Shown: positions 4,608-37,942, counted from the stretch's first letter. The stretch is DNA of 64,000 nucleotides from Minisyncoccota bacterium (GCA_035546615.1 DASZWM010000006.1:32001-96000), one strand, 5' to 3'. Numbers and translations are program-made. The notes: generated by a model from the letters alone, not told the origin.

Positions 4608-6872
4608 ATGCGCTTAAAAAGCATCGAGCTGTCGGGCTTCAAGTCTTTTGCCAAAAAGACGACGCTTGAATTCGGCACGTCCATAACCTCCATCGTGGGC
4701 CCCAACGGCTCGGGCAAATCGAATACCGCCGAATCCTTCCGCTTCGTGCTCGGCGAGCAGTCGATGAAGTCGATGCGCGGGCGAAAAGGCGAGGACATGA
4801 TCTGGAACGGTTCGGCTTCGGTGCCGCGCGCGGGCCGCGCCAGCGTGAAGCTCATTTTCGACAACGCCGACCGGGCGCTCAATCTCGACTTCGACGAGGT
4901 GTCTATCGAGCGCGTCGTATACCGCGACGGCGGCAACGACTATCTGCTTAACGGCAGCCAGGTGCGCCTGCGCGATATTTCCGAGCTTTTGGCCCAGGCC
5001 AATATCGGCGCTTCCGGCCACCACATTATTTCCCAGGGCGAAGCAGACCGCGTGCTGACGGCGTCTTCCCGCGAGCGGCGCGAGATGATAGAGGACGCGC
5101 TGGGGCTGACCGCTTTTTTGTATAAGCGCGAGGAGGCCGAGCGCAAGCTCGAGAAGGCGGCGGAGAACATGCGCGAGGTGGGGGCCCTCAGGCGCGAGCT
5201 CATGCCGCATTTGAAGTTCCTCGCAAGCCAGGTAAAGAAAATAGAGGAGGCGCAGACGCTCAAAGACACGCTTGCGGAAAAGTTCGCCGAGTATCTGAAG
5301 CGGGAAAGCGTATATCTCGCCGCCGCCGAAGCGGAACTGAAGGAAGAAGAGGCCGCTCCGCATGCAGAGCACCGCGAGCTCGATTCCCGTATCGAACATC
5401 TTCGTCACGAGCTTGCGGGCAAGGGCAAGAAAGATGCTGAAACCCACGAACTCATCGCGCTTGAGGCAGAGGGCCGCACGCTCGCGGGAAAGCGCGATGC
5501 CCGGGCCCGCGAACTGGGGCGGGTGGAAGGCGAGATTGCCGCGCAGGAGCGCATGTCGCATGTAGTGGTGAGTACGGTGCCGATGGAGGAGGCAAATACA
5601 TTCGCTAACCGCGTGCAGGAAGAGCTTGAACTGTTTCTGACGCTCGAAGGCCAGCCGCTCAAGGCGCGGATACACGCGCTTGTCGTGCTTGCCAAGGACT
5701 TCCTGCGCCGCATCAAGGAGCGCGGCATGCCGCAGGGGACTAGCGTGGAATCGCTCAAGGCAAAGCATGCGGAGCTTGAACAGGAGCTGAAAGAACTCCA
5801 GGCCGGGGAAGCCCGCGTCGCCCGAGAGGTGGAAGCCCTGCGCCGCAAGATAGAAGGAGAAAAGGACGCTTCGCGCGAAGCGGAGCGCGAGCTCTTCCAG
5901 GCGATGGCAAAGCGCAGCGAGCTTGAGGTGGAACTTGCCCGTCTTAAGAACCGACGCGACATCCTGGCGCGCGAACGCGAGCAATTTAAGGCGGAAGTAA
6001 CTGAAGCAGGCGTTCTAGTAGGCCGCGCCGCGCTCGACTACGCCGACTACAGGGTGCAGGAAGGTTCCGGCGAAGCGGTTTCCGAGGCGGATATGGCAAG
6101 CGAGGAGCGCGGCGTGCAGTCCGACCGCCGCCGCAAGCTTGAGCGCATGAAGATAAAGCTTGAGGAAATAGGCGCGGGGAACTCGGAGGAAGTCTTGCGC
6201 GAGCACAAAGAGACGACCGAGCGGGACGAGTTCTTGGCACGCGAGCTGCTGGATCTTGAATCATCGTCCGAGAAGCTGCACGGCCTCATCAATGAGCTCA
6301 CCGCAACGCTTGAGACGCGCTTCTCCGAAGGCATCGAGAAGATAAATACCGAATTCGATACGTACTTCAAGCTCATGTTCGGCGGCGGCAACGCCAGCCT
6401 CACGCTTGTTAAGGAAAAGAAGGCGCGCCGCGCGGTGCCCACAGGCCTGCTCGGCGATTTTGAAGAGGACAGCGAACATGAAGAAACACGCGCTGATGCT
6501 GAGGAAGAGGATATAGAGGAGGGAATCGAGATAGCCGTTACCCTGCCGCACAAGCGCATCAAGGGCCTCCATATGCTCTCGGGCGGCGAACGCGCGCTTA
6601 CGTCCATCGCGCTCATATTCGCGATGAGCCAGGTCAACCCGCCCCCCTTCCTGATACTCGACGAGACCGACGCGGCGCTGGACGAGGCGAACTCGCGCCG
6701 CTATGGCGACATGATAGAGAATCTTGCCAAAAAGTCCCAGCTTATTTTGATAACGCACAACCGCGAGACCATGGCCCGCGCCGGCATCCTCTACGGAGTA
6801 ACGATGGGCAGCGACGGCGCGTCCAAGCTCTTGTCAGTCCGATTTGAAGACGCGCTCGCAGTGGCGAAATAA
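4608..6872 (+). CDS. smc: SMC-family chromosome segregation ATPase, short form (~755 aa).
   Basis: N-terminal Walker A (GPNGSGKSN), long coiled-coil, C-terminal signature LSGGERALTSIAL and Walker B (FLILDETDAALD). Start assigned at MRLKSIELSGFKSF. TACAAT sits 6 nt upstream of the ATG and there is no SD. Confidence 0.8.
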   Translation: MRLKSIELSGFKSFAKKTTLEFGTSITSIVGPNGSGKSNTAESFRFVLGEQSMKSMRGRKGEDMIWNGSASVPRAGRASVKLIFDNADRALNLDFDEVSIERVVYRDGGNDYLLNGSQVRLRDISELLAQANIGASGHHIISQGEADRVLTASSRERREMIEDALGLTAFLYKREEAERKLEKAAENMREVGALRRELMPHLKFLASQVKKIEEAQTLKDTLAEKFAEYLKRESVYLAAAEAELKEEEAAPHAEHRELDSRIEHLRHELAGKGKKDAETHELIALEAEGRTLAGKRDARARELGRVEGEIAAQERMSHVVVSTVPMEEANTFANRVQEELELFLTLEGQPLKARIHALVVLAKDFLRRIKERGMPQGTSVESLKAKHAELEQELKELQAGEARVAREVEALRRKIEGEKDASREAERELFQAMAKRSELEVELARLKNRRDILAREREQFKAEVTEAGVLVGRAALDYADYRVQEGSGEAVSEADMASEERGVQSDRRRKLERMKIKLEEIGAGNSEEVLREHKETTERDEFLARELLDLESSSEKLHGLINELTATLETRFSEGIEKINTEFDTYFKLMFGGGNASLTLVKEKKARRAVPTGLLGDFEEDSEHEETRADAEEEDIEEGIEIAVTLPHKRIKGLHMLSGGERALTSIALIFAMSQVNPPPFLILDETDAALDEANSRRYGDMIENLAKKSQLILITHNRETMARAGILYGVTMGSDGASKLLSVRFEDALAVAK

Positions 6873-7657: not shown

Positions 7658-9614
7658 TTACCAATTCGAAATCCAGCTGGCGGCTGCCGAGGTCGGCTGC
7701 GACCAGCTTAACCTTCACTTTGTCGCCGAGCGTGTATTTCTGCTTCGTGCGCTGGCCTATGAGCGCGTACTCCTTTGCGGAGTAGTTATAAAAATCATTG
7801 CCTATGGTACGCACGCGCACGAGGCCTTCGGCGGCGGACTCCTTATCTTCCACGTACAGGCCCCAGTCGGTCACGCCGGAAATCACGCCCTCGAATGTTT
7901 GGCCAATTTTCCCCATCATGAACTCCACCTGCTTGTAGCGGATGGATTCGCGCTCGGCGTCAACGGCTTCGGCTTCGCGGGCGGAAGCTGCGATGCACAT
8001 CTTCTCCAGGTTTCCGTATTCCGTGCGGGTCATAGGCTTGCCGTCCAAATGGCTGGCGAGGATGCGGTGCGCGAGCATGTCCGGGTAGCGGCGGATGGGG
8101 GAGGTGAAGTGCGTGTAGTAATCGAACGCGAGACCGAAGTGCCCGATGTTCTTGGTCGAGTAAATAGCCTTGGCCATAGAGCGAAGGGTGGCGGTGCGGA
8201 TAAGATGCTCCTCCGGCTTGCCCTGGATATCCTTCAAAAGCTTCCCGATGTCGCGCGCGGATTTCTTCTTTTGCGTATTGAATTCGTAGCCTATCGCGCG
8301 CACGAACGTGGAAAGCTCCTCGATGCGGTCCTCTTTCGGCTGGTCGTGGATGCGGTAGAGGAAGACATAATTTTTTTCCGGAAGCTTTTCCGCAAGCTTC
8401 GATACGTACAGCGCAACTTCGCGGTTCGCCAAAAGCATGAACTCCTCGATCATGAGCATTGTCTCGATGCGGACCTTGCGGATGACCTTGAGCGGCTTTC
8501 CGGATTCGTCGAGCACGAATTTCACTTCGTTGTCGCCGAAGTCTATCGCGCCTTCCTTCTCGCGCTCGCGGCGCAGTATCCGCGCCAGCGCCCGCATCTG
8601 GCCGAGCTCTTCCACATAGGGGCCTTTGCCCGCATTCAAAACTTCCTGCGCCTCCTCGTAGGTAAAGCGTTTGTTGGACCGAATGACCGACTTCGTAAAG
8701 CGGCGGTCGAGCACCTCCGCCTGCGCGTTCATGCGGAATACCGCGGAGAACGCGAGCCGGTCCTCGTCGGCCTTGAGGCTGGCGATGCCGGCCGAAAGGC
8801 TGTGGGGAAGCATGGGAATGGTCGCGTCTACCAGGTACACGCTTGTGCCGCGCTTCACGGCCTCCTCGTCCAGGGCGGTCCCGGGGCGCACGAAGTGCGT
8901 GGCATCGGCGATATGCACGCCTATCTCGAACTCGCCGTTCGGGAGCGGCTTAACCGAAATGGCATCGTCGAAGTCCTTCGCGTCGGCCGGGTCGATAGTG
9001 AAGGTTGTCGTGTCGCGAAAGTCTTCCCGCTTAGGAAGCTCTTCCTCGATTATTTTCGCATGATTAGCCTCAAGTTCGCGCGCCTCGGCTTCCGCCGCTT
9101 CGGGAAATTCGGTGCGGAAGCCGTGCTCGAGCACGATGGCGTTCATCTCCACCCGGTGCTCGCCCGCGCGGCCCAGGTGCTGAGTTATGGAGCCGACCGG
9201 GTCGGTCTTTCCGTCAAAAGATATCAAATGCACGATGACCTTCTCTCCCTCCTCGTATTTGCTGTCGTCCGACAGCGTGATGGGGCGGTAGAATTTCACG
9301 TCCGCAGGCACGGCAACGATGCGGCCGCCTTGCTGGCGCAGCGTTGCGACGAAGTCTTCTTTGGCGCGGGCAACAATTTTTACCATCTTGCCTTTGGGGC
9401 GGGGGAATAGGCCCAGCACTTCTGCTTCGACAGTGTCGCCATTGAGCGCCCCAGACAGGTCGGGAGTCTGTATCTCTATATCCTCCTTCTCAGGGTCCTC
9501 AGGCCACGAAAGATAACCGACGCCTTTGCGGGTTACTTGGACGATTCCGGAAATGGTCTTCTTCTTGCCCGCTTGGGGGGCCGGTTTCTTGCTAGGAGGC
9601 ATTAACCCGCGCAC
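7653..9614 (-). CDS. rnr: Ribonuclease R / RNase II family exoribonuclease (OB folds, RNB domain, C-terminal S1).
   Basis: RNB-domain motifs (TIDPADAKDFDDAISV, HIADATHFV) and a C-terminal S1 domain. The track start is GTG at 9614. The alternative ATG at 9602 is preceded by TGgTATAGT 10 nt upstream. Confidence 0.9.
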   Translation of the reverse strand: MRGLMPPSKKPAPQAGKKKTISGIVQVTRKGVGYLSWPEDPEKEDIEIQTPDLSGALNGDTVEAEVLGLFPRPKGKMVKIVARAKEDFVATLRQQGGRIVAVPADVKFYRPITLSDDSKYEEGEKVIVHLISFDGKTDPVGSITQHLGRAGEHRVEMNAIVLEHGFRTEFPEAAEAEARELEANHAKIIEEELPKREDFRDTTTFTIDPADAKDFDDAISVKPLPNGEFEIGVHIADATHFVRPGTALDEEAVKRGTSVYLVDATIPMLPHSLSAGIASLKADEDRLAFSAVFRMNAQAEVLDRRFTKSVIRSNKRFTYEEAQEVLNAGKGPYVEELGQMRALARILRREREKEGAIDFGDNEVKFVLDESGKPLKVIRKVRIETMLMIEEFMLLANREVALYVSKLAEKLPEKNYVFLYRIHDQPKEDRIEELSTFVRAIGYEFNTQKKKSARDIGKLLKDIQGKPEEHLIRTATLRSMAKAIYSTKNIGHFGLAFDYYTHFTSPIRRYPDMLAHRILASHLDGKPMTRTEYGNLEKMCIAASAREAEAVDAERESIRYKQVEFMMGKIGQTFEGVISGVTDWGLYVEDKESAAEGLVRVRTIGNDFYNYSAKEYALIGQRTKQKYTLGDKVKVKLVAADLGSRQLDFELVK

Positions 9615-9687
9615 TATACCACGGTTGACCGAATATATCTACTCTGATACAGTATGAGCCAAGCCCGAGAGGGCCTATTTTTAAGAA

Positions 9688-10122
9688 ATGCTTACCATCC
9701 GACTCCAGCGCCGCGGACGCAAGAACGACCCGTCTTTCCGGGTTATTCTCGTTGAGTCCAAGCGTGCAGCAAAGACCGGCAGCTTCCAGGAGGTCCTCGG
9801 CTCATACGACCCGCGCGTTGACCGCACCGACCTCAAGGCCGACCGCATCAAGCACTGGATAGGCATGGGCGCGACCGTTTCCGACACCGTGCACAACATC
9901 CTCATCAATCAGAAAGTCATCGAGGGCAAGAAGATAAACGTGCTCCCGCGCAAGAGCCCGCCGAAGAAGGCGGAAGAGGCGGCTGCAGCCGCTCCCGCAG
10001 CAGAAGCGGCAGCTCCTGAAGCAGCCGAGACCACTGAAGAAAAGGCAGAGGCGACGTCTCCCGAGGCAAAAGCGGAAGAAGCTGTGAATACCGAGGTTGC
10101 TGAGGAAACTCCCGCACAATAG
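9688..10122 (+). CDS. rpsP: 30S ribosomal protein S16 with an Ala/Glu-rich C-terminal extension.
   Basis: MLTIRLQRRGRKNDPSFRVILVESKRAAKTGSFQEVLGSYDP. Confidence 0.9.
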   Translation: MLTIRLQRRGRKNDPSFRVILVESKRAAKTGSFQEVLGSYDPRVDRTDLKADRIKHWIGMGATVSDTVHNILINQKVIEGKKINVLPRKSPPKKAEEAAAAAPAAEAAAPEAAETTEEKAEATSPEAKAEEAVNTEVAEETPAQ

Positions 10123-10235
10123 AATAGAGGCAGGGATTTATCATCAAACGAGTGAGGAACAAAAACGAGTTTTTGATTCCGAGCGAGAGCAGATGATACA
10201 GATTTCCTAATCTTTAATAAACTAAATATACTGAA

Positions 10236-10622
10236 ATGGCAGCAGAGAGAGATCAGGAGTTTTTGGAATTTGTCGTAAAAGGTCTTGTCGAGAATCCGGA
10301 CGCGGTTAAGATAACTCGCGCCGTAGACGAAATGGGCGTTCTTTTGACGCTCGACCTCCATCCGGATGACATGGGCAAGGTTATCGGCCGCTCGGGCAAT
10401 ACCGCCAAGGCAATACGCACGCTTCTTCGCGTCGTTGGCATGAAGCACAATGCCCGCGTGAACCTTAAGATAAACGAACCGGCAGGAGGGCTTCGCGATC
10501 CTGCTATGAGCGCTCCGAGCGGCGGCAGCGCTGCCCAGGGCTGGGACGGCAGCCACGAGGCTCCCGCAACCCCTGCGATGAAGTCGGTGGACGAGGCGAT
10601 GGACGAGCTCTCAAAGTTCTAA
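10236..10622 (+). CDS. KH-domain RNA-binding protein (YlqC/UPF0109 family), as typically found between rpsP and rimM.
   Basis: LVENPDAVKITRAVDEMGVLLTLDLHPDDMGKVIGRSGNTAKAIRTLL. A terminator hairpin GCCGCCGCAAGGCGGC + T-tract follows at 10640-10668. Confidence 0.8.
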   Translation: MAAERDQEFLEFVVKGLVENPDAVKITRAVDEMGVLLTLDLHPDDMGKVIGRSGNTAKAIRTLLRVVGMKHNARVNLKINEPAGGLRDPAMSAPSGGSAAQGWDGSHEAPATPAMKSVDEAMDELSKF

Positions 10623-10693
10623 TCTCAGATATTTTAGCAAAGGCCGCCGCAAGGCGGCTTTTGCTTTTCCCGCCCTCCTTTATACTGTGGAGT

Positions 10694-11500
10694 ATGTATC
10701 CTCCTGTTTCTGACCTGCTCGCAGAGCTCTCTTTATTTCCCGGAAGGGAAGACGGCTTGCGGAAAATTAAAAGGTATAGCAATGAGAAAGTAGCTTTTTA
10801 CCGCTCTTCTGATTTTTCTCATAGCAAGAGAGTGGCGTGGCTTGTATATAGTCTCATCCCATTATTATCAGAGGTAGATAAGACTTTTGATATAGGGCGC
10901 GCTGTGGCTATGGCGCTCGTGCACGACGATGCTGAACTGATAACGGGTGATCATCAAGCTGGTAATAAAAGCAAAATGACCAAAGAGCAGCTTGCTGCAA
11001 TTGCTGACGAAGAACGTGAAGCGATTGCCGCTTTGGCAAAGAGATATCCAAAAACTCTCGGCGGATATGTCTATCAGGACCTAGTACAAGATCTCGCTGA
11101 TCTAAAGAATTCTGAAGCTCATTTTGTTAAGTACTTTGATCGTTTTGATGCTTTGGGGGAGACTTACCATGAACTCTTTGCAGGGAATGTGGTTTGGACG
11201 CAAAACGTAGTTAATGAGTGGGGCATCATTCCCACACCTTTTATGTATTACTACGATAGGCTGCCGCCCATGGTTGAGAAGTATCCGATCCTGACTGCTT
11301 TAAAAGGAAAACATGTATTCTTCGATGTCCCTGAAGCCAGAGAATGGGAATCATTTGTCCTGACTCGTCAGCCTCATACAAAGGATTCAATACTTGCGTC
11401 TACTGGTCATAGGCAATATGATGCCTGGCGCTCTGTTGTTATTGATTCTGCAGATCAAGAAGAAATCGCAAATCTCTACTCTCAACAAGAATACCTATGA
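10694..11500 (+). CDS. HD-domain phosphohydrolase, YfbR-like 5'-deoxynucleotidase family; low-GC insert.
   Basis: HD motif LVHDDAELITGDH. GC is roughly 43% against ~62% in the flanks. It has its own -10 (TATACT) after the upstream terminator. Confidence 0.65.
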   Translation: MYPPVSDLLAELSLFPGREDGLRKIKRYSNEKVAFYRSSDFSHSKRVAWLVYSLIPLLSEVDKTFDIGRAVAMALVHDDAELITGDHQAGNKSKMTKEQLAAIADEEREAIAALAKRYPKTLGGYVYQDLVQDLADLKNSEAHFVKYFDRFDALGETYHELFAGNVVWTQNVVNEWGIIPTPFMYYYDRLPPMVEKYPILTALKGKHVFFDVPEAREWESFVLTRQPHTKDSILASTGHRQYDAWRSVVIDSADQEEIANLYSQQEYL

Positions 11501-12153
11501 ATTTCCATGTCGTAACGCTTTTTCCGGAAGTTATCGAGGCCTATACGAACGCTTCGATACTGGGCCGTGCCCAGAAAGAGAAGAAGTTTTCCGTTAAGAC
11601 CTACCAGCTGCGCGATTTCGTCAGCAATAAATGGGGCAAGGTAGACGAGCGCCCATACGGCGGCGGCCCGGGCATGGTTATCCAGGCCGAGCCGGTCATC
11701 AGGGCAGTCCAGAAAATATCTGGACTTACGAAGTCCAGAATTCGGCCGAAGGTCATTATTACTGCGGCAGGCGGCAAGCCTTTGACCAACGCGTATGCCA
11801 AAGCGCTTTTGAAGCAAAAGGACGTCATAATCGTTTGCGGCAGGTACGAAGGCATCGACGCCCGGGCAAAAAAAGTGCTCAAGGCCGAAGAAGTCTCCGT
11901 TGGGCCGTACATTCTGACCGGGGGCGAGGTTCCGGCCTTGGCAATCATTGATGCGACCGCTCGGCAGATAAAGGGCGTTTTGGGCAAGTTCGAGTCCCTC
12001 GAGGAGTCCCGGGTCGCAAGCCACGAGATATACACCCGCCCCGAGGTCCTGAAAGCAAAAGGAAAGAACTACGCGGTCCCGAAGGTCCTCCTCTCCGGCC
12101 ATCATGCAAAGATGGACCAGTGGAAAGAAAAGAAACGCAGCAAACCCCTATAA
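11497..12153 (+). CDS. trmD: tRNA (guanine37-N1)-methyltransferase.
   Basis: DERPYGGGPGMV signature and SPOUT-fold C-terminus. It carries an in-frame copy of the 25-bp REP-like hairpin at 11716-11742, encoding ISGLTKSRI. Confidence 0.95.
   Translation: MNFHVVTLFPEVIEAYTNASILGRAQKEKKFSVKTYQLRDFVSNKWGKVDERPYGGGPGMVIQAEPVIRAVQKISGLTKSRIRPKVIITAAGGKPLTNAYAKALLKQKDVIIVCGRYEGIDARAKKVLKAEEVSVGPYILTGGEVPALAIIDATARQIKGVLGKFESLEESRVASHEIYTRPEVLKAKGKNYAVPKVLLSGHHAKMDQWKEKKRSKPL
11716..11742 (+). repeat. REP-like palindrome copy 4, in reverse orientation, embedded in frame in trmD.
   Basis: ATATCTGGACTT-ACG-AAGTCCAGAATT. It is the reverse complement of the hairpin found three times at the RAYT locus (37124-37859). 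Confidence 0.7.
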
Positions 12154-12171
12154 ATAGGGGTGGATAGCCCC

Positions 12172-12199
12172 TTGACGGGCCTTCCCAGGCGCGTATACT
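12172..12199 (+). promoter_or_regulatory. Sigma70-type promoter upstream of rpoBC: TTGACG-16-TATACT.
   Basis: Near-consensus hexamers read directly. A ~240-nt leader follows, containing the inverted repeat TGTATCGA-n11-TCGATACA at 12222-12248. Confidence 0.5.
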
Positions 12200-12438
12200 G
12201 GTATATGAAACCAAAGCGGGGCAGATGATTGTGTATCGAGTGGCGCGGTTTCGATACAAACAGTGGTGAGTGCATCCACCTAAATATTGCTTGAGAAATC
12301 GGGCAAGGGAGCTTCATGCCCCCGCTATTTTTCGTGTTTTGCAGGTGTGGACAGCGTTCTTGTTTTTTTCAAAAAGTAGTGAAGGTTCGCCCTGTGCCTG
12401 CTCCCATTATTAAGTCCGCTCAACTTATTAAACCGCGC

Positions 12439-19293
<6,855 letters not shown>

Positions 19294-37123: not shown

Positions 37124-37148
37124 ATTCTGGACTTCGTAAGTCCAGAAT
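37124..37148. repeat. REP-like hairpin copy 1, overlapping the RAYT stop codon.
   Basis: ATTCTGGACTT-CGT-AAGTCCAGAAT: 11-bp perfect arms and a 3-nt loop. Confidence 0.75.
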
Positions 37149-37942
37149 TATTCCAGGGTCAGCTTTGTAAGCCCCGACAGATCGATATTGTGAAGAAATT
37201 CCCCAGTCTCCTTCTTGAGATCCTCATGCGAAGCCTGAAAAAAGTCCTTAGTAAGTATCGCGGGAAAGTTTTCTGCGCCCGTATAGTCCAAATAACTGCT
37301 CCACTTGTAATTTTCCAGGTGCGAAAGGGCGGCTTTGGCGTTTTCGATGCGCCGGCCGCGCCAATTGCGCGCGCCCGCGCTGTAATCAAGCGGATTAAGG
37401 TGGACGTAATGCAATATGTGCAGTTCGTGCCCGAGCTTCTCAACCCGGACCTTTTTAGTTCTCCCCTGGAAAAGCGTTCCCGAACGCTCGTGCCGCTCGT
37501 TGAAGTATTTCGCGTATCCGATGTTCAGTTTCCTCAAAAATCGCGTAATGCCTCCCTCAACCCGCTCCGAGAGGAGAAGGTGATAGTGGTTTTTCATTAG
37601 GCACCAGCCGTGGATATCCACGAGCCGCTCTTTCTTCGTTAATCCCAATTCTGGACTTCGTAAGTCCAGAATATCGCGCTTGAAAGTATAGTAGGTGCTT
37701 CCCGCCGCGCCGGCGTCGTTGAACTCAAAAAGGTCATACACAAAGCGCATATAATCGCGCTGGTCCGTAAAAAGCACCCGCTTATCGACGCCCCGGTTAA
37801 GCACGTGGAATAATTCCATGCGGGCGACTCTATCATTCTGGACTTCGTAAGTCCAGACAGTGCTAGACATTCGTTTTCTTTCTTGTATAACGTTCTCTAT
37901 GCTGCTCGCGGATAAAGGACAGAGTGATCCTGCAGGCCTCAT
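37148..37942 (-). CDS. REP-associated tyrosine transposase (RAYT) / IS200-like Y1 HuH transposase.
   Basis: N-terminal LFHVLNRGVDKRVLFTDQRDYMRFV, HuH motif CLMKNHYHLLL, and a YVHLNPL catalytic-Tyr helix typical of TnpA_REP. The probable true start is MELFHV at 37819. The longer ORF would translate a REP copy as ...VWTYEVQN.... Confidence 0.7.
   Translation of the reverse strand: MRPAGSLCPLSASSIENVIQERKRMSSTVWTYEVQNDRVARMELFHVLNRGVDKRVLFTDQRDYMRFVYDLFEFNDAGAAGSTYYTFKRDILDLRSPELGLTKKERLVDIHGWCLMKNHYHLLLSERVEGGITRFLRKLNIGYAKYFNERHERSGTLFQGRTKKVRVEKLGHELHILHYVHLNPLDYSAGARNWRGRRIENAKAALSHLENYKWSSYLDYTGAENFPAILTKDFFQASHEDLKKETGEFLHNIDLSGLTKLTLE
37648..37672. repeat. REP-like hairpin copy 2, inside the RAYT coding region (encodes ILDLRSPE).
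   Basis: Identical 25-mer ATTCTGGACTTCGTAAGTCCAGAAT. Confidence 0.75.
37835..37859. repeat. REP-like hairpin copy 3, just 5' of the probable RAYT start.
   Basis: ATTCTGGACTTCGTAAGTCCAGAcA: 23/25 identical to copies 1 and 2. Confidence 0.7.

Follow-up and report, generated by a model that had tools for sequence, protein, structure and literature searches.

How does a REP-like palindrome come to be translated as part of an essential protein? The question is raised by a stretch of 64,000 nt (hereafter the window, meaning the whole of the DNA analysed) from a Paceibacterota (CPR) MAG, in which an initial annotation had noticed such a hairpin lying in frame within trmD. It had offered two readings, a REP insertion tolerated in frame or a RAYT recognition site that arose within the gene.

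A REP-like hairpin in frame within an intact trmD gene

The trmD reading frame (Table 1) runs without a stop codon or frameshift despite the hairpin, and its ATG overlaps the stop codon of an upstream HD-domain gene (ATGA). It matches Pfam PF01746 with E=9.5e-40 (136.8 bits, cutoff 27.3) and 27 TrmD sequences in the PDB at E<=1e-10, with residues 3-213 aligned and the best E values at about 1e-45 to 5e-45. The product is 100% identical to a protein named as TrmD of a Candidatus Paceibacterota MAG (P0001), which is encoded on a 208-kb contig. The SAM-loop motifs GRYEGID and LTGGE are present, and residues G115-D121 and L140-E144 are invariant across 37 orthologues with the exception of I120, which is nearly so. 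Between the KH-domain gene and trmD lies an HD/YfbR-like 5'-deoxynucleotidase gene (window 10661-11500, + strand), in place of which four relatives (loci L002, L003, L004 and L101) have a NADAR-domain gene. Further along, one ORF of 2325 aa (window 12316-19293, + strand) encodes a fused RpoB and RpoC; in relatives these are found fused (2284 aa, L002) or split (1770+531 aa in L101, 1945+365 aa in L102).

Positions 11716-11742 read ATATCTGGACTTACGAAGTCCAGAATT and are translated as I-S-G-L-T-K-S-R-I. Within them, 21 bases form a perfect 9-bp stem with a 3-nt loop, and the isolated 27-mer folds at -11.9 kcal/mol. Read from the sequence, five of the six reading frames of the hairpin lack a stop codon. 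The window was searched with the pattern TCTGGACTTNNNAAGTCCAGA, allowing up to 3 mismatches. Four matches were found, all of them exact, against 0.01 expected from shuffles, and the possibility that the resemblance is no better than that of random coding sequence is thereby set aside. The other three copies (37126-46, 37650-70 and 37837-57) belong to a RAYT-like transposase gene and have the loop CGT, i.e. the opposite orientation to the trmD copy. A 23-nt block, ATTCTGGACTTCGTAAGTCCAGA, is common to all four copies and lies at 11719-11741 in trmD. The proposal of a REP-like, RAYT-associated hairpin read in frame as ISGLTKSRI is thus confirmed, the trmD copy sharing 23/23 nt with the RAYT-linked copies. 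A scan for perfect hairpins recovered only this one repeated family in the window, the remaining hairpins being GC-rich and terminator-like. Assembly support had also been called for: assemblies made independently (JGI, Logan and NCBI) place the hairpin at this same codon, which rules out an assembly artefact.

In an AF2 model of the protein (mean pLDDT 72.8) a helix at residues 64-77 is followed by a loop (78-84) and by a strand (85-95) leading into the SAM-binding knot, with the interdomain linker to the C-terminal domain at about 164-181. The hairpin codons are therefore predicted to precede the knot, spanning the end of the helix and the loop. When S. aureus TrmD is aligned, a gap of 4 residues falls exactly on the hairpin segment. 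The segment had originally been assigned to the region between the SPOUT knot and the C-terminal domain; the model and this gap place it before the knot, so that assignment was wrong. Even so, the stretch of E. coli TrmD quoted as its counterpart was the correct one, and the loop is indeed variable.

The native codons just upstream (VQK, GTCCAGAAA) mimic the 3' arm of the hairpin. They can pair with positions 11719-11726 to give an alternative 8-bp hairpin with the loop AAATA (window 11706-11726), and it is this pairing that the minimum free energy structure uses (z=-3.3 for RNA, z=-4.4 for DNA). The VQKI codons GTCCAGAAAAT also occur in trmD genes with other loop types, e.g. L034. An Rfam scan of positions 9500-13000 returned nothing relevant. 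A target-site duplication, suggested by AGTCCAGAA at 11706 and again at 11732, was rejected because a spacing of 26 nt would break the reading frame. A self-templated (quasi-palindrome) origin was likewise discarded, as it cannot account for 23-29 nt of identity with the RAYT copies.

Table 1. Positions in the window of trmD, the RAYT-like gene and their hairpins.
Feature	Position	Strand	Basis
trmD, tRNA (guanine37-N1)-methyltransferase, 218 aa, intact	11497..12153	+	ORF, Pfam, PDB sequence matches
Native codons (A)VQK, AGTCCAGA, resembling the hairpin 3' arm	11706..11713	+	Fold prediction
Hairpin core TCTGGACTT-ACG-AAGTCCAGA, codons 75-81, SGLTKSR, in frame	11719..11739	+	Sequence, pattern search
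Hairpin copy, 11-bp stem ATTCTGGACTT-CGT-AAGTCCAGAAT, touching the RAYT-like stop codon (3' end)	37124..37148	+	Pattern and hairpin scans
RAYT-like Y1 (HUH) transposase gene, 223 aa, one copy in the window	37151..37819	-	Pfam Y1_Tnp, synteny
Hairpin copy inside the RAYT-like ORF; in-frame reading on the minus strand ILDLRSPEL	37648..37672	+	Pattern search
Hairpin copy 17 nt upstream of the RAYT-like start codon	37837..37857	+	Pattern and hairpin scans

The RAYT-like gene and its own hairpins

The transposase scores 25.4 bits against Pfam Y1_Tnp, just above the cutoff of 23, and 28.3 bits against the NCBIfam model REP_Tyr_transpos (NF047646), below the curated cutoff of 80; no PDB sequence matched it at E<=1. 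The protein and its homologues share KNHYHLLL and LHYVHLNPL, which we take to be the HUH and catalytic tyrosine motifs of Y1 transposases. There are 2758 detectable homologues, and the named ones among the top matches are Patescibacteria. The gene neighbourhood in relatives is T2SSE, the RAYT-like gene, Gmad2 and ribonucleotide reductase, and the position is conserved in the window and two other assemblies at 68-75% protein identity. As it keeps its neighbours at this level of divergence, the gene behaves as a domesticated, vertically inherited RAYT and not as an insertion sequence.

The Y1 ORF has a hairpin at either end in the window, as it does in L005, L014, L017, L019, L104 and L105, and hairpins both flank and lie inside the RAYT homologues of L005, L014, L017, L104 and L105. 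Most homologues, among the 120 matches listed, have a pseudo-palindromic peptide at the same internal position (DLR[SN]P, DFV[SN]P or MEIRSPS). In homologues for which DNA was available, the bases that encode it form a hairpin of the local variant, the stems covarying, which suggests that the hairpin inside the ORF is a conserved cis-element of the transposase gene. DNA-uptake sequences were also considered, the RAYT gene lying near competence/pilus genes, and were rejected since the copy number is too low.

Variant concordance between the trmD and RAYT loci

All relatives compared are metagenome fragments. The palindrome had been expected to be absent from sister lineages, but the four closest TrmD orthologues (P0002-P0004 and P0006, 86-94% identity) carry it at the same codon, reading ISGLTKSR or ISGFTKPR. 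At the DNA level, trmD in the hairpin-bearing relatives is only 77-80% identical to that of the window, i.e. 20-23% diverged, with a synonymous codon identity of 0.52-0.56 (L002, L103). The hairpin core is identical to that of the window in L002-L004 and L103. In L001 it is ATATCTGGGTTT-ACG-AAACCCAGATAT, which differs by two compensated base-pair changes (GGGTTT/AAACCC) that alter two amino acids (L to F, S to P).

This variant is shared between loci. In GCA_964587895.1 the trmD gene (L001) and the internal and 3' hairpins of the RAYT homologue (L104) are all GGGTTT/AAACCC, whilst GGACTT/AAGTCC is found at both the trmD and RAYT loci of the window and of SRR35940896 (L003/L105). The variants are therefore concordant in 3/3 assemblies where both loci were readable. 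The identity of the trmD copy, within each genome, with the hairpins of the RAYT gene itself indicates continuing turnover rather than silent vertical decay. Upstream of the RAYT homologue in GCA_964587895.1 the hairpin (L104, 2287-2307) combines GGACTT in its 5' arm with AAACCC in its 3' arm, a hybrid that represents either a step from one variant to the other or the outcome of exchange between copies.

The longest identical runs between trmD of the window and that of L002 and L103 cover the hairpin, at 30 nt (28 nt for the next longest) and 27 nt (23 nt for the next) respectively. From these sequence comparisons, conservation at the nucleotide level would be favoured only modestly.

The TrmD loop as a recurrent hairpin site

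A further 80 trmD loci were taken from metagenomes irrespective of hairpins, giving 82 distinct trmD coding sequences for comparison. Hairpins were strongly associated with long loops, being present in 33/49 loops of at least 12 aa and in 1/33 of those of 11 aa or fewer (Fisher p=1.6e-9). Base-length loops never contained a hairpin of the trmD/RAYT-linked family (family A), and about 60% of close trmD orthologues had no hairpin at all. Outside the loop, perfect hairpins are nearly absent from trmD. In total, 21 perfect hairpins of at least 9 bp were found in 48.6 kb of trmD, with fewer than 1 expected as estimated from shuffles of the window. The density of 0.43/kb is at least six times that of the flanking genes (at most 0.075/kb).

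At least four hairpin sequence groups occupy the loop: family A, GACAT-CCG-ATGTC, AGGT-TCA-ACCT, and a TATA-loop group encoding xxIYxx. The last has a palindromic TATA loop and highly variable stems, and is found in trmD of L022-L024, L031, L035, L038, L039, L048, L059, L064, L078, L079 and L089. On a loop-masked neighbour-joining tree of about 200 residues the groups are interleaved with hairpin-less forms. The nearest relatives of the window (L102, L021) carry a different hairpin group, and one tight cluster contains three different loop states. No second copies of their own loop hairpins were found within ±4 kb of 22 trmD loci. A hairpin-less loop, QQITKNKSQKT (L030, L036, L080), contains ATCACAAAAAACAA twice; this tandem duplication is a different route to a longer TrmD loop.

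Hairpins in other genes and genomes

The collections were scanned for exact pattern matches only, so diverged copies may be missed. A scan of one genome per species gave 16 loci with a family-A hairpin, almost all from Patescibacteria, and reference genomes contained 1-6 pattern matches each. Away from the RAYT genes, about half of the copies are inside ORFs. Family-A hairpins covary across Patescibacteria, with variants largely uniform within a genome apart from a few hybrids. Inverted doublets are present in L014 (4572-4620) and L020 (425-482), with none in the window.

In-frame family-A hairpins were found in genes for a Mur ligase (L007), a DNA polymerase III delta' homologue (L008), a GT2-GT1 glycosyltransferase (L010) and a metallo-beta-lactamase protein (L018). 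A distant TrmD (L016, JAZJYZ010000001.1) has one at a second site, different from the loop at residues 74-84. There, two adjacent in-frame hairpins of different groups (6385-6454; SGFRKPR and NGRHTMSAI) follow a TN..A motif, and the pair adds about 24 residues to the protein. No shared target motif outside the palindrome was found at six in-gene family-A sites, beyond an AT-rich palindromic extension.

The RNase R genes beside trmD have three sites, hit recurrently, where hairpin-linked segments add +5 to +15 residues. The hairpins lie at 1766-1794 in L022, at 2118-2166, 2787-2817 and 2935-2965 in L024, and at 2084-2130 in L062, and include an inverted doublet as well as a covarying pair from two relatives (RTSDVRVL, WSSDDQVL). 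For some palindromes of 9 bp in conserved motifs of RNase R (YALGDRVR), chance or codon choice appears to be the source.

Insertion or replacement

A closer inspection of segment lengths bears on how the hairpins arrived. Treating the 9-aa segment as an insertion does not agree with the orthologue alignment: the net gain of TrmD over its hairpin-less relatives is 3-4 residues and not 9, although the hairpin spans 7-9 codons. In the Mur ligase (L007, 1637-1669 of MGJZ01000007.1) a 33-nt hairpin brings no change of length. The segment that contains it is 40 residues long, as in 76/79 orthologues where it could be delimited, and the P-E conserved in the native YPEV motif is retained; on these alignments the hairpin looks like overwriting rather than insertion. 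Simple insertion is too simple an account of net gains that amount to 3-4 aa for TrmD and to 0 for the Mur ligase. Together with the mimicry of the hairpin arm by the VQK codons, these sizes point to entry at arm-like sequences, with partial overwriting or later trimming under a constraint on length. Of the tolerated in-frame REP insertion put forward at the outset, the tolerated, in-frame part is the best reading of the data, whilst plain insertion is not upheld.

Discussion

The trmD palindrome is probably a RAYT-associated, REP-like hairpin tolerated in a permissive TrmD loop that serves as a recurrent landing site. The association of hairpins with long loops is what makes a tolerated in-frame REP the best reading. 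The hairpin would belong to a REP-like repeat family of a RAYT-like Y1 (HUH) gene that Paceibacterota inherit vertically in single copy, and one copy of the repeat may have entered, or partly overwritten, the lysine-rich surface loop predicted between helix 64-77 and the knot strand. It would be translated through as SGLTKSR, leaving TrmD intact, and the frame used would yield a basic peptide suited to the loop. In an essential gene, survivors would be limited to in-frame, tolerable events. One loop would thus have been hit repeatedly, at least four hairpin families being distributed among the lineages, with turnover presumably continuing by re-insertion at the same spot or by copy-correction from other copies. 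By analogy with known transposases of this kind, we infer that the RAYT-like enzyme moves or corrects copies on single-stranded DNA, and that the trmD copy is a tolerated passenger without a role of its own.

Several observations count against this reading. The copy number is low (4 in 64 kb, of which 3 are at the RAYT gene) and there is no classical high-copy REP population. The net gain, being below the length of the hairpin, does not fit plain cut-and-paste insertion, and no empty site was found in a very close relative, so that the boundaries and the insertion event are unseen. The putative transposase family is, by its sequence score, far below the curated RAYT cutoff. Moreover, the excess of hairpins in trmD exceeds what a passive filter obviously predicts, and the site, frame and orientation are the same in four lineages, which could reflect one old insertion.

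This last possibility, a single ancient insertion in an SGLTKSR/SGFTKPR ancestor followed by vertical descent and compensatory stem changes, with the match to the RAYT copies due to shared ancestry, would explain why the window, L002/L003/L004, L103 and L001 agree in site, frame, ACG loop orientation and a 13-residue loop. We consider it unlikely, however, because trmD has the RAYT-linked variant in three assemblies, the doubly compensated one included, despite 20-23% DNA divergence, and independent drift would not keep separate loci matched. Nor are the carriers monophyletic on the loop-masked tree of only about 200 residues, where L102 and L021 have another family. Concordance of the trmD variant with the RAYT copies would be explained if the hairpin were a functional cis-element of trmD kept by selection. 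It might work as an RNA hairpin that influences translation, pausing or decay, or the RAYT-like protein might bind it in DNA or RNA. Such an element would account for the frequency of hairpins in one loop and their tracking of RAYT's own hairpins, for their strong concentration in trmD relative to the flanking genes, and for the two TrmD sites hit, the loop at 74-84 in many lineages and the second site in L016. It would further agree with hairpin DNA that is exactly conserved in a hypervariable loop, forming the longest identical run with L002 and L103, and with a compensated variant that alters two amino acids (L to F, S to P) whilst pairing is kept. On the other hand, that conserved run is only slightly longer than the others, the fold predicted in the window prefers the competing hairpin, and the same hairpins occur in unrelated genes. 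The hairpin is absent from about 60% of close trmD orthologues and is therefore dispensable. In two reference genomes that have the RAYT gene and carry family-A hairpins at other loci (MFKT01, CAYGFK01), the pattern was not matched in trmD. Finally, the stems are almost always perfect Watson-Crick helices with no G-U pairs, which suits copying at the level of DNA better than an RNA element. A cis-acting role is accordingly an improbable explanation in our judgement.

A palindrome that is chance or ancestral coding sequence, unrelated to the transposase hairpins, is barely credible. The upstream native VQKI codons do already resemble one arm, and the YALGDRVR palindromes of RNase R suggest that chance or codon choice may generate similar structures. 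However, this origin is ruled out by the pattern count (23/23 nt identity with three other copies, 0.01 matches expected), by compensated variants at the same codon in relatives and by the recurrence of the family, with covariation, across Patescibacteria; base-length loops, too, never hold a family-A hairpin. A bolder proposal sees in the RAYT-like enzyme and its hairpins an active system, operating across the genome, by which particular loops of essential genes would be rewritten again and again at arm-like sequences, the trmD copy being a working partner site. We regard this as a long shot. If true, trmD, RNase R, the Mur ligase and others would be its targets, by site-directed copy-in or replacement, and the trmD copy would be regulatory or recombinational and not a passenger. 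Variant concordance, the hairpin within the transposase ORF, the excess in trmD and the length-neutral replacement in the Mur ligase would then have one explanation.

The role of RAYT transposases and the spread of their hairpins are still unsettled, and these very small genomes present a simple case, each having a single RAYT-like gene and only a few copies of the hairpin. Several copies are in essential genes, where each event is filtered by selection, and variants at separate loci change jointly. Such genomes therefore allow a direct test of hairpin copying or correction by a domesticated HUH transposase, and of the target sequences involved. In addition, hairpins can be the source of short, lineage-specific 'insertions' in the proteins of CPR. 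Their signature is a pseudo-palindromic peptide, SGLTKSR, LDLRNPE or xxIYxx for instance, and such segments should be masked in alignments and phylogenies.

Comparison with known systems

IS200/IS605 elements share the transposase fold family (Pfam Y1_Tnp) and have hairpins at both gene ends. In contrast to them, the RAYT-like gene is single-copy in the window and holds a conserved chromosomal position in three genomes, a single palindrome recurs within the ORF and on either side of it in place of distinct left and right ends, and there is no tnpB.

The REPIN-RAYT systems of Proteobacteria (e.g. PMC8049555) are closer, having in common a single-copy, vertically inherited Y1 transposase flanked by cognate hairpins. 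The perfect 9-11 bp stems and 3-nt loops are those of the 20-40 nt palindromes of REP type, and hairpin and transposase appear to co-vary between lineages; inverted doublets occur at two loci (L014, L020) and not in the window. However, the CPR protein reaches 28 bits against the curated RAYT cutoff of 80, and the tens to hundreds of extragenic copies of those systems are not seen here, where many of the dispersed copies are inside genes.

RPE-1 elements are about 100-150 bp long, and we know of no recognised cognate transposase gene for RPE. The unit described here differs from RPE in being 21-33 nt long, in being tied to a RAYT-like gene and in causing a net length change that is small or zero. 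Palindromes in frame in conserved genes, and absent from orthologues, are nevertheless found at the TrmD loop and at the RNase R sites (+5 to +15 aa), and it is in this that the likeness lies. RPE, as Ogata et al. (2000) are cited in PMC3733652, are 'selfish DNA in protein-coding genes', namely in-frame palindromes of Rickettsia. By that account, they too are in conserved genes of a small genome, and the host proteins are thought to stay functional (PMC3733652).

The nearest precedent is that of Di Nocera et al. 2013 (PMC3733652), who described GTAG- and CGTC-tagged palindromic repeats linked to RAYT genes in several phyla, some of them in frame within genes. The intragenic hosts include DNA repair and RNA or tRNA enzymes, and the repeats are single units or dimers of about 7-30 residues (PMC3733652). 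That REPs are normally intergenic, as the initial annotation had it, is true in general, but intragenic in-frame REPs had already been described there (PMC3733652). Like the trmD hairpin, these are short palindromes, in frame, tied to tyrosine (RAYT) transposase genes, and the trmD hairpin alone is therefore a new example of a known phenomenon. The literature searched on RAYT or REP in Patescibacteria/CPR gave unrelated papers or one incidental mention. Four features of the sequences, as we read them, were not found in the literature searched for Patescibacteria: a putative RAYT-like family with a conserved hairpin in its own ORF, a very low copy number with a high in-gene share, the apparent occupation of the TrmD loop by several groups, and variant concordance between loci. 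Relative to the REPs of Di Nocera et al., neither GTAG nor CGTC is present in the trmD hairpin ATTCTGGACTTCGTAAGTCCAGAAT, the copy number is very low, the host belongs to Patescibacteria, a copy is conserved inside the transposase ORF, and several hairpin families occupy the same protein loop across lineages.
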